Shown here: positions 1 to 23,008 of the stretch, in pieces
How the letters are laid out: every line of letters starts with the position of its first letter
How positions within the stretch are numbered: the first letter of the stretch is position 1
The notes under the pieces: model-generated
Seen by the model: the letters and a program-made list of their open reading frames with translations, nothing else
Databases searched by the model: none
What the model was told of the DNA's origin: nothing
Position numbers and translations under genes: made by a program
DNA from: a virus
Strand: one strand, 5' to 3'
IMG/VR virus record: IMGVR_UViG_3300033463_005627
Location: 1 to 23,008 of that record
DNA: 23,008 nt

Positions 1-579
1 GGAAGAATTGTGTGGCTGAATTCTAATGCGCAAACTAACTGTAAGAAATACTTTAAAATTATTGCCATTAATGGTAAAAAGACAGTTAAACAATGTGTAG
101 ACGATGGCACTCTCAAACCTGGGGATGTTATTACCTATGTTGGGATGACGCATACCAATGCATACTTAGGTAGCAACAAGTCATTTGATAGCGGTCATTT
201 TTATTGTACTGGCAGTGGCGAGGGAGCCATCTATAAGAAATGGGTTGGCAGTCTCGCACATAGTAACAAGAAAGTTGCTTATATTCTCCGACTCAAAGAT
301 CAACCGAAGAAACAAACGACTACTGTTGTAGCTGAAAAGACTTCAGATACTTCTAAACCGCAAGCGTATCGTGTGCGTGTTGGCATCTATTCAATCCCAG
401 CAAATGCCCAAATTCTTCAGCAACGTATCAAGATTAAGCTGAACCTTGATTGCTTTACAGAAGTTGTTGGCGGTCAAACATTTGTGTATTGTGGAAGTTA
501 TTCTTCCAAAGCTAATGCAGAAGCACGTTCAAAGCTGTTGAATCAGAATGGCTTTGACACGGCGATAATTACTGTATAA
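1..579 (+). CDS. Cell-wall hydrolase-like protein, 5'-partial: C-terminal half of an NlpC/P60-like peptidase followed by a SPOR peptidoglycan-binding domain
   Basis: ORF 10..579, and the frame stays open back to nt 1, so the gene probably starts outside the window. 'PGDVITYVGMTHTNAYLG...FDSGHF' resembles the His-containing C-terminal half of NlpC/P60. The C-terminal 'AYRVRVGIYSIPANAQILQQRI...TFVYCGSYSSKANAEARSKL' has the SPOR pattern. It is the only convincing plus-strand gene, ends in TAA and is followed by hairpins. Confidence 0.5.
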   Translation, partial: GRIVWLNSNAQTNCKKYFKIIAINGKKTVKQCVDDGTLKPGDVITYVGMTHTNAYLGSNKSFDSGHFYCTGSGEGAIYKKWVGSLAHSNKKVAYILRLKDQPKKQTTTVVAEKTSDTSKPQAYRVRVGIYSIPANAQILQQRIKIKLNLDCFTEVVGGQTFVYCGSYSSKANAEARSKLLNQNGFDTAIITV

Positions 580-602
580 TTATTTTATAATTACGTTTCA
601 TA

Positions 603-626
603 ACTCAGTTACTCGGCAAACTGAGT
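603..626 (+). terminator. Hairpin ACTCAGTT-N8-AACTGAGT just downstream of the SPOR-protein gene
   Basis: Perfect 8-bp inverted repeat 24 nt after the TAA stop. A T9 run follows about 18 nt later. Confidence 0.35.
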
Positions 627-658
627 TGACTATATAATTACCATATTTTTTTTATTAC

Positions 659-693
659 GGGGTAGTTCTCACTTTGGGGCTACCCCATTTTTT
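659..693 (+). terminator. Rho-independent terminator
   Basis: GGGGTAG ... CTACCCC stem (7 bp) followed directly by ATTTTTT. Confidence 0.6.
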
Positions 694-727
694 ACCGCTT
701 GGTTTAATAAATTATAAAAAATAAAAC

Positions 728-737
728 ACATAATTAT
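728..737. repeat. Direct repeat ACATAATTAT, copy 1; second copy at 755..764
   Basis: Exact 10-bp direct repeat 27 bp apart in the AT-rich attP-like region. Candidate arm-type or host-factor site. Confidence 0.3.
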
Positions 738-754
738 GTCTCAAATAGTTTGGA

Positions 755-764
755 ACATAATTAT
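755..764. repeat. Direct repeat ACATAATTAT, copy 2
   Basis: Exact copy of 728..737. Confidence 0.3.
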
Positions 765-21113: not shown

Positions 21114-21137
21114 AAAAATATCTCCTTTAATAAATTA

Positions 21138-21353
21138 TTATTTCCAAGTAATAAATAAATATACTACACAGTATGCTAATCCCAGTATGCTAACAACTCG
21201 CATAATTGCAAACACAATCTCATCCCACGCCGGTTTACCACCATGAGTTAATTCAAATAGTTCCATCGGATGTTTTCTGTAATACCAATCAGTAACACTC
21301 CAAAATATCCATGTAGTAACCAAAATTGCTCCAGTTATATATAATCCAATCAT
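21138..21353 (-). CDS. Small membrane protein (71 aa, two TM helices)
   Basis: Hydrophobic segments 'LYITGAILVTTWIFW' and 'VVSILGLAYCVVYLFI'. Immediately upstream of the MVP gene. TAA stop. Confidence 0.55.
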   Translation of the reverse strand: MIGLYITGAILVTTWIFWSVTDWYYRKHPMELFELTHGGKPAWDEIVFAIMRVVSILGLAYCVVYLFITWK

Positions 21354-21363
21354 AATTCACACC

Positions 21364-21912
21364 TCATATACTCTGAAACTCAAATTCAGCATCATATTTG
21401 CCATTTAACTTCCTTTTCTTATCGAAATAATCTCCCCAAGATGTATAATCGTCAATGTCGCCAAGTTCTTTCCGCAACTTTCTCATACACTGTTCACAAT
21501 ATGCTGTGCCAACCGTACCCAATGACGTTGGACTAAATTCGTAAACAATCGAGCAACCATCGTATTTAACATTGCCGTTTGTTGGATGGTACAATCTTCT
21601 ATGACGAGTCGCCCAATTATTGATGCGTTCTTGTTCATCTTCGCTAATTGGGAATCCGCGCTGATAATCTTTCAACATACGATCACGCTGTTCTTTCATT
21701 GATCGTAGCTGTTCGTCTTTCCACACGTTAGATTTAAGAGCATCATTTTCTTCTTCTACGGCTTGTGCATAATTAACTGCATTTTCGATAACACTTTTAA
21801 TGTTATCAATAGCATTATATAAACCAACGACATCCTTAAGCTCGCCAGTACTTAGATTAACTAATTGTCCGCCGCCATTAAGAATTTTATCTGATTTTAT
21901 GCTCATAATCAC
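21364..21912 (-). CDS. Hypothetical protein (182 aa) with predicted coiled-coil segments
   Basis: ORF with a TGA stop. Overlaps the upstream ORF by 4 nt. Confidence 0.6.
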   Translation of the reverse strand: MIMSIKSDKILNGGGQLVNLSTGELKDVVGLYNAIDNIKSVIENAVNYAQAVEEENDALKSNVWKDEQLRSMKEQRDRMLKDYQRGFPISEDEQERINNWATRHRRLYHPTNGNVKYDGCSIVYEFSPTSLGTVGTAYCEQCMRKLRKELGDIDDYTSWGDYFDKKRKLNGKYDAEFEFQSI

Positions 21913-22274
21913 AAATACCCCATTTCTTTAAGCTGTTCAACGCTAAGTGACTTTGACATTGGTTTCCAAGCCACTACTTCATCATGCAAAACATCGTTAT
22001 TAACAACCCAATTGTCACCTAATTTCCACCCGCATTCACTATATGTATAGGGGGTATCTCCGCAATCATCAACAACCATAATCTGTACATTTTCTATCGC
22101 TGGTGGTTCTTTATCTTTGCAGAAAATCCACTGCTCGGTTTGCTCGGTTTTTTCAACACCTTTTTTGAAACCATCAATATAGATTTTCTCCAACAATGAT
22201 TTCAAATTGCTTAGATAGTCGTCGTTGTGAAAATAATTTTTAGCAACAATTTCAATTTTACCACTGTTTACCAT
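21909..22274 (-). CDS. Hypothetical protein (121 aa)
   Basis: ORF with a TGA stop and tight packing. Confidence 0.6.
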   Translation of the reverse strand: MVNSGKIEIVAKNYFHNDDYLSNLKSLLEKIYIDGFKKGVEKTEQTEQWIFCKDKEPPAIENVQIMVVDDCGDTPYTYSECGWKLGDNWVVNNDVLHDEVVAWKPMSKSLSVEQLKEMGYL

Positions 22275-22449
22275 TATCTTCTCTCCTTACTGGCATATAA
22301 TGCTTGCATTCATAAGGACAATATGGCGAAAGTATACCACCGCAACCTTTAAGATACTCTCTGCATACTTCGCCGTGTATGCAAGATACTCTACCACCAT
22401 CTGCATATCTGTATGAATTGGATCTGTATCCGGCCGAATCATCCTTCAT
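22258..22449 (-). CDS. Small Cys-rich protein (63 aa; C...C...C..C...C.C..C)
   Basis: ORF 'CIHGEVCREYLKGCGGILSPYCPYECKHYMP'. TAA stop. Confidence 0.45.
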   Translation of the reverse strand: MKDDSAGYRSNSYRYADGGRVSCIHGEVCREYLKGCGGILSPYCPYECKHYMPVRREDNGKQW

Positions 22450-22643
22450 GATTTGTCATTTATTTCAACTGTTGGCTGATCTATAACATCGGCAATACAC
22501 GCGCTCAAAGTAATCATCATCCTCATTACGTCGTTATATACCGCATCTTTTCCTTGTTTTTTGGCATCTTCAAGCCACTTCTGGTACATATCACGGCGTT
22601 TGTATAACAGCGGTAACAAAGCATCAGCATCAATTAATCTCAT
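22446..22643 (-). CDS. Hypothetical protein (65 aa)
   Basis: ORF with a TGA stop. Its start overlaps the upstream gene. Confidence 0.45.
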   Translation of the reverse strand: MRLIDADALLPLLYKRRDMYQKWLEDAKKQGKDAVYNDVMRMMITLSACIADVIDQPTVEINDKS

Positions 22644-23008
22644 CGTTATTCTCCTCTACTTTTGCGCTACTCATATAAAATTCTCCAGATGCGACATTGT
22701 ATGGTTGTTCGACTACGAATGGTTTAAGTATAGTATTAATCATCTCATCATTATTCTCATTGTAATATTCTGGCAATGGCATCCATGCAACTACGCTATA
22801 GTCTTCTAAAAATCCGTATTCTCTATCGCAATAAAACCATCCTTTTTCACCTTTTCTATTACAGAAATCATATTCGTCTATTTGATATAAATCGTTTGCG
22901 AATGTCATTACATCATACACATACGGATTATATTTAGATTTAGTATCACAGGCTACCAAATATGCGCCATCTTTTTCAGGCAATCTCTCACCGCATGGTA
23001 TCCACTGT
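22630..23008 (-). CDS. Hypothetical protein, 5'-partial at the window edge
   Basis: The tracked ORF starts at TTG 22983, but the frame stays open to the window end (...QWIPCGERLPEKDGAYLV...). TGA stop. Confidence 0.5.
   Translation of the reverse strand, partial: QWIPCGERLPEKDGAYLVACDTKSKYNPYVYDVMTFANDLYQIDEYDFCNRKGEKGWFYCDREYGFLEDYSVVAWMPLPEYYNENNDEMINTILKPFVVEQPYNVASGEFYMSSAKVEENNDEIN

Follow-up and report, generated by a model that had tools for sequence, protein, structure and literature searches.

In a 23,008-nucleotide (nt) stretch of viral DNA (IMG/VR record IMGVR_UViG_3300033463_005627, positions 1 to 23,008; the whole stretch is called the window here), two GIY-YIG homing endonuclease genes, HEG1 and HEG2, contain in-frame TAG codons, and a gene for an amber-suppressor tRNA with anticodon CUA, tRNA(CUA), lies nearby on the same strand. 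Comparison with related phage contigs indicates that this tRNA probably reads TAG as an amino acid, most likely glutamine, in the two endonuclease genes, while TAG ends a few small genes. Sense TAG in the window is limited to HEG1 and HEG2, and reading TAG as sense throughout rejoined only these two. An initial annotation had set the endonuclease fragments aside as exceptions to a complete avoidance of TAG; they are the key observation. Contigs of relatives and of other phages are designated by L numbers below. The features concerned are the following.

17063-18346, minus strand: HEG1, apparently free-standing SegE-type GIY-YIG homing endonuclease gene, 427 codons (translation, Pfam, orthologues)
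12697-13620, minus strand: HEG2, I-TevI-like GIY-YIG endonuclease gene, 307 codons (translation, Pfam)
10186-10276, minus strand: gene for the amber-suppressor tRNA, anticodon CUA (ARAGORN, Rfam)
10278-10412, minus strand: conserved leader directly 5' of tRNA(CUA), near-identical in L010, L135, and L138
10688-10858, minus strand: conserved 56-codon gene with TAG as its terminator (10688-10690), orthologues in L010 and L135
12544-13749, minus strand: group I intron-like insertion of ∼1.2 kb carrying HEG2 (comparison with L135, junctions)
13750-13947, minus strand: exon 1 of a ThyX-like gene, 66 codons, 82% identical to L135 residues 1-66
12109-12543, minus strand: exon 2 of the ThyX-like gene, 76% identical to L135 residues 67-204

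HEG1 has TAG at codon 53 (18188-18190) and codon 91 (18074-18076), and HEG2 at codon 79 (13384-13386). Neither gene has any other internal stop; all three stops are TAG, and all three fall within the GIY-YIG catalytic domain. As the initial annotation had observed, both reading frames continue past TAG. HEG1, flanked by genes of 58 and 62 codons, matched the Pfam family SegE_GIY-YIG with 24.5 bits, just under the 25-bit cut-off, and HEG2 matched GIY-YIG with 49.6 bits over a span that crosses the TAG. Three sense TAGs in 734 endonuclease codons, against none in the ∼6,300 other codons of the window, is an enrichment with P = 0.001.

HEG1 is present at the same locus in five lineages, with 42 to 86% identity to the window HEG1 in a database search. 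The gene has one to three in-frame TAGs in each lineage, never TAA or TGA, and the sites partly differ. At the site YGR#NF (# marks the TAG site), TAG occurs in three lineages, Ser (TCG) in one, and His in one; at YYN#VYGG, TAG is found in three lineages and Met or Ile elsewhere. Two other sites are TAG in a single lineage, NF#KE in L010, where other lineages have Lys or Glu, and TK#EIEKM in L135, where the others have Glu. The ratio of nonsynonymous to synonymous substitution rates (dN/dS) of the N-terminal 125 codons, which hold all TAG sites, was 0.06 to 0.11 in four pairwise comparisons, equal to or below that of the C-terminal part. Because the ratio is this low across the TAGs, the HEG1 frame is evidently translated through them, and the endonuclease genes are not decaying; pseudogene status was considered and is ruled out by the same values. 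At the level of sequence, translation of TAG in the endonuclease genes is thereby demonstrated. The five distinct TAG sites of HEG1 all lie within the first 125 of 427 codons (chance ∼0.002, in a post hoc test).

An orthologue of HEG2 in L145 (3034-3957), 76% identical, has TAG at the TAG codon of the window gene and three more, which face H, Q, and Q in the window. The closest HEG2 homologue, the database protein P0014 (L145 3034-3957), shows Q opposite the window TAG, and we rejected this residue as evidence, since the corresponding codon in its DNA is itself TAG and Q was introduced on translation. Residue evidence was therefore restricted to positions checked in the DNA. The DNA of P0014 has four TAGs; a Q in a database homologue is not always independent evidence for reassignment, and further homologues with Q in this column may be affected likewise.

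The same pattern extends to ordinary genes of the relatives. A tblastn search of all window proteins against them gave 12 internal TAGs and no internal TAA or TGA; the chance of TAG-only internal stops, taken over 11 sites, is <1e-5. L010, whose proteins are 85 to 90% identical to those of the window, has two TAGs in its orthologue of 11435-11863, both facing Gln in the window and in L135, and four in its orthologue of 10833-11414, facing Q, E, Q, and E in the window. In the stretches sampled, the ordinary genes of the window have no TAG, those of L135 about one, those of L010 six, and those of L059 several. L059 is a 198-kb relative with its own tRNA(CUA); several of its ordinary genes have one or two TAGs, among them genes for a papain-type peptidase and a membrane transporter-like protein.

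Residues aligned to TAG were Q (nine times), E (nine), K (three), and H (two), never W, L, or Y. Summed BLOSUM62 scores over 13 DNA-checked sites were 33.8 for Gln, 25.5 for Glu, 10 for Lys, −1.5 for Ser, −13.5 for Tyr, −26.8 for Leu, and −31 for Trp. L060, a 167-kb contig with the same type of tRNA, encodes a SpoIID homologue with five TAGs, two of which face conserved Gln residues (the KAQA and GMSQ motifs of solved structures); the others face Glu, Gly, and Asp. Since the alignment scores rank Gln first and this agrees with the published genetic code 15, Gln is the most likely reading of TAG. Peters et al. (PMC9523058) give TAG-to-Gln as confirmed by proteomics in recoded phages.

The encoded CUA tRNA reported by the initial annotation was confirmed by ARAGORN (10185-10277) and by Rfam (10186-10276), where it scored 58.9 bits against the tRNA model (cut-off, 29). 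Its predicted fold has an acceptor stem of 7 bp, 2 nt (U8 and A9) leading to a D stem of 4 bp, and anticodon and T stems of 5 bp each, with the anticodon loop CUCUAAA, discriminator G73, an A1-U72 pair, and no encoded CCA. The variable arm is ∼22 nt long, amounting to an insertion of ∼19 nt in the variable region. The retrieved loci held 24 distinct long-armed tRNA(CUA) genes, mostly on large IMG/VR phage contigs; in these genes the first pair is weak or mismatched and the extra arm has a YUGA motif. When 18 representatives were folded, 17 of 20 predicted cloverleaf pairs covaried by compensatory change. Fold and covariation together establish a structurally sound tRNA as far as sequence can do so.

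In a direct alignment with Escherichia coli trpT, the first 12 nt of the window tRNA were identical and the 3' acceptor strand differed by one base; the anticodon arm of the L135 tRNA equals the trpT arm except for CCA changed to CUA. The nearest non-CUA tRNAs in 118 phage loci were tRNA-Trp, and a BLAST search of tRNA(CUA) against E. coli genomes and phages gave no match. The molecule thus looks like a tRNA-Trp whose anticodon has undergone a C35-to-U change and which has gained a long variable arm. A precedent is su+7 (supU) of E. coli, a tRNA-Trp(CUA) that is charged with Gln by glutaminyl-tRNA synthetase. The window tRNA shares A1-U72, G73, and the acceptor stem AGGGGCG/CGCCC(C/U)U with E. 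coli trpT, and in the window lineage TAG aligns with Gln. su+7 is a laboratory mutant, whereas the window tRNA is a natural phage gene with putative Gln charging, a variable arm of ∼19 added nt with a conserved YUGA loop, and no encoded CCA. The precedent supplies a mechanism for reading TAG as Gln that would fit both the tRNA body and the alignments.

Other identities were considered for the tRNA. ARAGORN labels it a pyrrolysine tRNA (tRNA-Pyl), a label that follows the anticodon only. In a tRNA-Pyl, a single nucleotide separates the acceptor stem from the D stem, the anticodon stem has 6 bp, the variable loop has 3 nt, and the D loop is small; the 2-nt gap, 5-bp anticodon stem, and ∼22-nt variable arm of the window tRNA rule this identity out. 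A selenocysteine tRNA (tRNA-Sec) is excluded by the 7/5 arrangement of acceptor and T stems and by the CUA anticodon. Serine identity, which the long variable arm and G73 might suggest, is opposed by the aligned residues and the weak first base pair. The CUGAUGA sequence of the variable arm was also considered as part of a hammerhead ribozyme and rejected; no GAAA or stem III follows it, and the motif is not found in L135.

The genomic surroundings of these tRNA genes vary. Near-identical copies of the window type occur in unrelated contexts in L090 (761-852), L076 (2132-2223), and L135 (11952-12041), and directly after each copy lies a homing endonuclease gene with in-frame TAGs, of the GIY-YIG type in L090 and the HNH type in L076 (ORF 1155-2126) and L135 (ORF about 12075-12530). 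L010 has a clean gap at the tRNA(CUA) site. The tRNA may be mobile together with TAG-bearing homing endonuclease genes. Two different tRNA(CUA) genes, one of ∼73 nt and a long-armed one of ∼90 nt, lie close together on L023, L062, L072, L082, and L028, either side by side or separated by as much as ∼900 nt, depending on the locus; in L075, a tRNA(CUA) and a tRNA(UUA) stand in one tRNA array.

TAG also acts as a terminator. The 41 minus-strand ORFs or genes that we tabulated, mostly Prodigal calls on an identical ENA metagenome contig (22,888 bp, equal to window 21-22908) with a few added ORFs, including a 14-codon mini-ORF, end in TAA (23), TGA (16), or TAG (2). None of the large or annotated genes of the window has TAG as its stop, and to that extent the claim of the initial annotation that TAG is never a terminator holds. 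It does not hold for the ORF at 10688-10858, which had been called dubious and is a real conserved gene, 78 to 80% identical to its orthologues in L010 and L135. TAG ends it in all three lineages, and beyond the TAG there are only nonconserved, unrelated tails of 2, 12, and 14 codons; TAG thus serves as a terminator there.

The scarcity of TAG among the stops is not in itself diagnostic. Finding no more than one TAG among 39 stops has a probability of 0.007 if the trinucleotide share of 16.6% is taken as the expectation, 0.09 at a TAG usage of 10%, and 0.20 at 7.5%, and among the true terminators of relatives TAG makes up roughly 5 to 10%. On a neighboring contig of 78 kb (L139), TAG is the stop of 4 of the 23 called genes, each of these four being followed after 9 to 24 nt by another gene, and none of the 23 has an in-frame TAG. 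This contig comes from the same assembly as the window, was found in the same three datasets, and by synteny with L010 adjoins the right end of the window; it very probably belongs to the same genome. Because the probability depends on the null chosen, relatives use TAG at 5 to 10%, and the neighbor has 4 of 23, the rarity of TAG in the window does not clearly depart from the ordinary and the terminator count alone is not diagnostic. What had been read as complete avoidance, and as the signature of an unreliable stop, appears to be a sampling effect. The broader conclusion of the initial annotation, that TAG is not a reliable stop and that conditional suppression is one option, is nevertheless supported, on grounds other than avoidance: in-frame TAGs under purifying selection, internal stops that are only TAG, sites occupied by Gln or Glu, and a sound tRNA(CUA). 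It had also named ordinary use of TAG stops elsewhere in the genome as a ground for refutation; such stops do occur on the adjoining contig, which answers the point in part.

In the explanation that we favor, the tRNA(CUA) of the window would be the decoder of its in-frame TAGs. With host release factor 1 acting alone, TAG would terminate, and a few small genes truly end there. Early in infection, or wherever the suppressor is scarce, ribosomes would stop at the first TAG of each endonuclease gene and release stubs of 52 and 78 residues, without a complete catalytic domain. Once tRNA(CUA) had been made, processed, given its CCA end, and charged, full-length nuclease would be produced. The arrangement would thus delay or limit the nuclease until the tRNA has accumulated.

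Several observations weigh against this explanation. L010, which has the most sense TAGs, lacks tRNA(CUA) at the syntenic site, so its decoder would have to lie elsewhere in the genome or come from the host. The window tRNA(CUA) is co-oriented with the early/middle genes and lies downstream of both endonuclease genes, and this layout gives no clear sign of an early-to-late switch. In the ribonucleotide reductase gene of relatives, a LAGLIDADG-domain ORF is free of TAG; not all homing endonuclease genes of the lineage are recoded. Glu ranks second to Gln in the BLOSUM62 sums and is the next most likely residue, and to our knowledge Gln and Trp tRNAs never have a long variable arm. The assignment of the 78-kb contig to the same genome rests on shared samples and synteny and not on a physical join.

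Accumulation of TAG wherever it is tolerated, once a suppressor exists, is a simpler alternative to timing control, and we regard it as possible, if somewhat unlikely. Suppression would then have no regulatory purpose: acquisition of the tRNA would have ended the lethality of TAG mutations, which would accumulate nearly neutrally, in dispensable selfish genes first and in some relatives also in ordinary genes, the window would represent an early stage of the published path to recoding, and restriction to the endonuclease genes would reflect tolerance and not timing. The turnover of TAG sites between lineages fits this account, as do the variable character of the sites, which are mostly of surface type and hold Q, E, K, S, or H, and the graded number of TAGs in ordinary genes from the window through L135 to L010 and L059; a route from rare stop to tRNA acquisition to accumulation has been proposed by Borges et al. 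(10.1101/2021.08.26.457843). Harder to reconcile with it are the clustering of all five HEG1 sites near the N terminus, from a post hoc test, the greater density of sense TAG in endonuclease codons, and the strong purifying selection on these genes, which are not simply decaying. That the endonuclease genes are dead or split, with tRNA(CUA) an unrelated tool, for example for host manipulation or against defense, is highly improbable. Gene callers do split HEG1 and HEG2, HEG1 has an internal ATG after a GAGGAG motif, and suppressor tRNAs occur in some phages in which no recoding is visible (PMC12386605). Such an account is, however, already at odds with the data on selection and on TAG-only stops: dN/dS is 0.06 to 0.11 over the interrupted domain itself, the internal stops at 11 sites are exclusively TAG in every lineage, and conserved GIY-YIG motifs are encoded after the TAGs but ahead of the internal ATG.

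A constitutive genetic code 15, in which TAG would never terminate and the apparent TAG stops would be sense codons followed by short tails, is unlikely in our judgment. TAG terminators are rare in the window, a TAA or TGA follows within 1 to 14 codons of each apparent TAG stop that was inspected (window, L010, L135, and L139), and in a 188-residue gene of L135 the tail after the called TAG stop is homologous to the C terminus of the window protein; an automated caller also translated the HEG2 of a relative with TAG as Q. These points are countered by the 56-codon gene, with its TAG end in three lineages and tails that differ in both length and sequence, by a 77-residue gene that ends with TAA in the window exactly where L010 has TAG, and by the closely spaced TAG-ended genes of the neighboring contig. 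Hosts of such phages are, moreover, reported to use the standard code (Borges et al., 10.1101/2021.08.26.457843). The insertion of another amino acid at TAG is similarly doubtful; the tRNA body would suggest Trp, the long arm Ser, Leu, or Tyr, and the ARAGORN label pyrrolysine. A Trp isotype has been predicted for 19% of phage suppressor tRNAs (Kienbeck et al., PMC10879173). Here the acceptor stem and discriminator equal those of E. coli tRNA-Trp, tRNA-Trp is also the type of the nearest phage tRNAs that could be typed, and the variable arm has the length seen in class II tRNAs. Yet W, L, and Y never align with TAG, and the scores of W, L, and Y, and also of S, are negative where that of Q is about +34; the tRNA has neither the architecture of tRNA-Pyl nor that of tRNA-Sec, and su+7 is a tRNA-Trp(CUA) known to carry Gln. 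Suppression by the phage tRNA, with Gln at TAG and TAG still able to terminate, remains the probable explanation.

The leader upstream of tRNA(CUA) has a TAG of its own. It contains a mini-ORF, MWHKYMICCRGDGG-TAG-VNARRGLRTGR-TGA, with the consensus ...I(C/Y)CRGDGG-TAG-(V/I)xA(R/H)RG...; the 14 codons before the TAG (mini-ORF 10355-10399) follow a perfect Shine-Dalgarno site and run into TAG at 10355-10357. The TAG lies within the 3' arm of a 13-bp hairpin, after which ∼60 nt are nearly invariant. The consensus fold shows wobble-preserving changes and two compensatory ones; the hairpin substitutions are also synonymous. The leader is found in L010 (15970-16094), L135 (11809-11951), and L138 (3896-4038), and L010 retains it although it has no tRNA at that site. 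No Rfam family matched the leader, exact-pattern scans found none in IMG/VR and a single Joint Genome Institute contig, nearly identical to L135, and an nhmmer search of the other 118 tRNA(CUA) loci found none. Only 35 nt separate tRNA(CUA) from the next start codon, and a search for ribozymes near the tRNA gave no family match at E ≤ 10. The leader might act as a sensor of suppression, and tRNA(CUA) might, in addition, travel between phages as a mobile cassette with homing endonuclease genes that need it; we give this idea only an outside chance. Termination or readthrough at the leader TAG would remodel the conserved RNA downstream and tune maturation of the tRNA or expression of the downstream genes, and the in-frame UGA of prfB would be a functional analogue.

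HEG2 is, judging by the anatomy of its locus, borne by a group I intron-like insertion in the ThyX-like gene. The two halves of this gene appear as ORFs of 66 codons (13747-13947) and 145 codons (12109-12546), the second with a weak match to Pfam Thy1. The gene is unbroken in L135 (9488-10105), and the break in the window falls exactly between His66 and Phe67. The junctions, ...CAU/UAAUUGA... and ...AAAUG/UUU (the slash marks the junction), have U before the 5' junction and G as the last base of the insertion, whose last ∼70 nt are 78% identical to a stretch of a Twort-like Staphylococcus phage; that stretch has an HNH endonuclease gene on one side and the third part of a terminase gene annotated as three pieces on the other, in a record that annotates no intron. 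The Rfam model Intron_gpI did not match the insertion at the gathering threshold or at E ≤ 10, possibly owing to the 924-nt ORF that it carries, and group I membership therefore rests on the anatomy.

The window, with a GC content of ∼37% and almost all of its genes on the minus strand, is the replication and nucleotide-metabolism module of a large phage, from samples that appear to be rumen or gut; to judge by record names such as STEW19-1 and WILK20-1, cattle rumen is the likely habitat. Gene identities were taken from Pfam and PHROGs, apart from the deoxyribosyltransferase and DUF1599 assignments, which come from a precomputed annotation.

996-2231: tyrosine integrase
In the window: DNA methyltransferase
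In the window: dUTPase
5868-8135: class II ribonucleotide reductase
11435-11863: nucleoside deoxyribosyltransferase-like protein
In the window: DUF1599 protein
In the window: ThyA-like protein
14940-16871: NAD-dependent DNA ligase
18678-21113, minus strand: 811-residue protein with a major-vault-protein shoulder domain (Pfam, E = 4.6e-16)

The 811-residue protein has no PHROG family. It is conserved across the window lineage (the L010 copy is 86% identical), and relatives of it lie on IMG/VR contigs of 205 kb (59% identity), 198 kb, and 66 kb. Among annotated phages, megablast with the whole window matched nothing and the 811-residue protein matched only LR756500/501/503, huge-phage records of 462 kb and 735 kb that are themselves unannotated, at 33 to 35%; the phage collection searched held no annotated complete relative. 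A prophage and host search of species genomes with the same protein gave no match. The relatives occupy contigs of about 200 kb.

The ribonucleotide reductase gene is uninterrupted in the window and is split in L010 (18157-20715) and L135 (14344-15985) by the LAGLIDADG-domain ORF, as an intron or intein. At the left end (window 1-996), a plus-strand gene ending at 579, whose product has a peptidoglycan-binding SPOR domain at its C terminus, runs toward the integrase gene in convergent orientation. By synteny, an RNA-repair set lies beyond the right end, comprising an RlaP nucleotidyltransferase, a T4 Rnl1-type RNA ligase, and a kinase/HD phosphatase protein (L139 10001-12505, L141 335-3815, and L010 1-3234); this makeup is typical of tRNA repair, and RlaP is 70 to 94% identical over thousands of metagenomic contigs, many of 194 to 206 kb. 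Assemblies of the phage all break near the two ends of the window, which suggests strain variation or repeats there; the right end had no exact match in IMG/VR.

The phage is a further member of the known stop-codon-recoded phages of gut and rumen, and the general published picture of these phages is unchanged. Noteworthy are the long-armed tRNA with a Trp body, the confinement of sense TAG in the window to two homing endonuclease genes, the coexisting TAG stops, and the TAG-bearing leader. Standard gene callers break both endonuclease genes, and ordinary genes in relatives as well, so that this group of phages will be misannotated unless TAG is treated as conditionally sense. The lineage offers close genomes at different stages, in which the conversion of a stop codon into a sense codon can usefully be studied. 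The tRNA itself suggests a testable route to TAG as Gln, namely, a tRNA-Trp body with a changed anticodon, as in su+7; if true, such a route would also explain the Trp isotype labels on some phage amber suppressors.

Code-15 phages (Lak, crAss-like, Garnet, Topaz, and others) read TAG as Gln with suppressor tRNAs, as set out by Borges et al. (10.1101/2021.08.26.457843) and Peters et al. (PMC9523058). The window resembles them in low GC content, a phage tRNA(CUA), and in-frame TAGs that align with Gln; in both cases, too, the replication module can largely be read with the standard code, and the extent of recoding varies among close relatives. Their hallmark, however, is recoded structural and lysis genes, whereas the present phage is known from its replication module only, where sense TAG is confined to two homing endonuclease genes and TAG still terminates. 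Some phage suppressor tRNAs have theta (HDV-like) ribozymes abutting their 3' ends, with the cleavage site within 5 nt (Kienbeck et al., PMC10879173). The window tRNA is likewise a suppressor tRNA(CUA) without encoded CCA in a gut-type phage, but its conserved element lies on the 5' side. In Agate phages, a group I intron endonuclease in an early gene is recoded at TGA, which has been proposed to delay the nuclease until the code switches (Borges et al., 10.1101/2021.08.26.457843). Common to both is an intron-borne homing endonuclease with recoded stops inside an early nucleotide or replication gene; the window differs in having TAG in place of TGA, a GIY-YIG enzyme, a ThyX-like host gene, and a second, free-standing endonuclease gene with the same feature. 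The td intron of phage T4 with I-TevI is alike in placing a GIY-YIG endonuclease in a group I intron (intron-like here) of a thymidylate-synthesis gene, and there, too, production of the nuclease is delayed relative to the host gene. T4 achieves the delay of I-TevI by a late promoter and by sequestration of the ribosome-binding site in early transcripts; in the window, the proposed brake would be an amber codon, and the host gene is ThyX-like and not ThyA.

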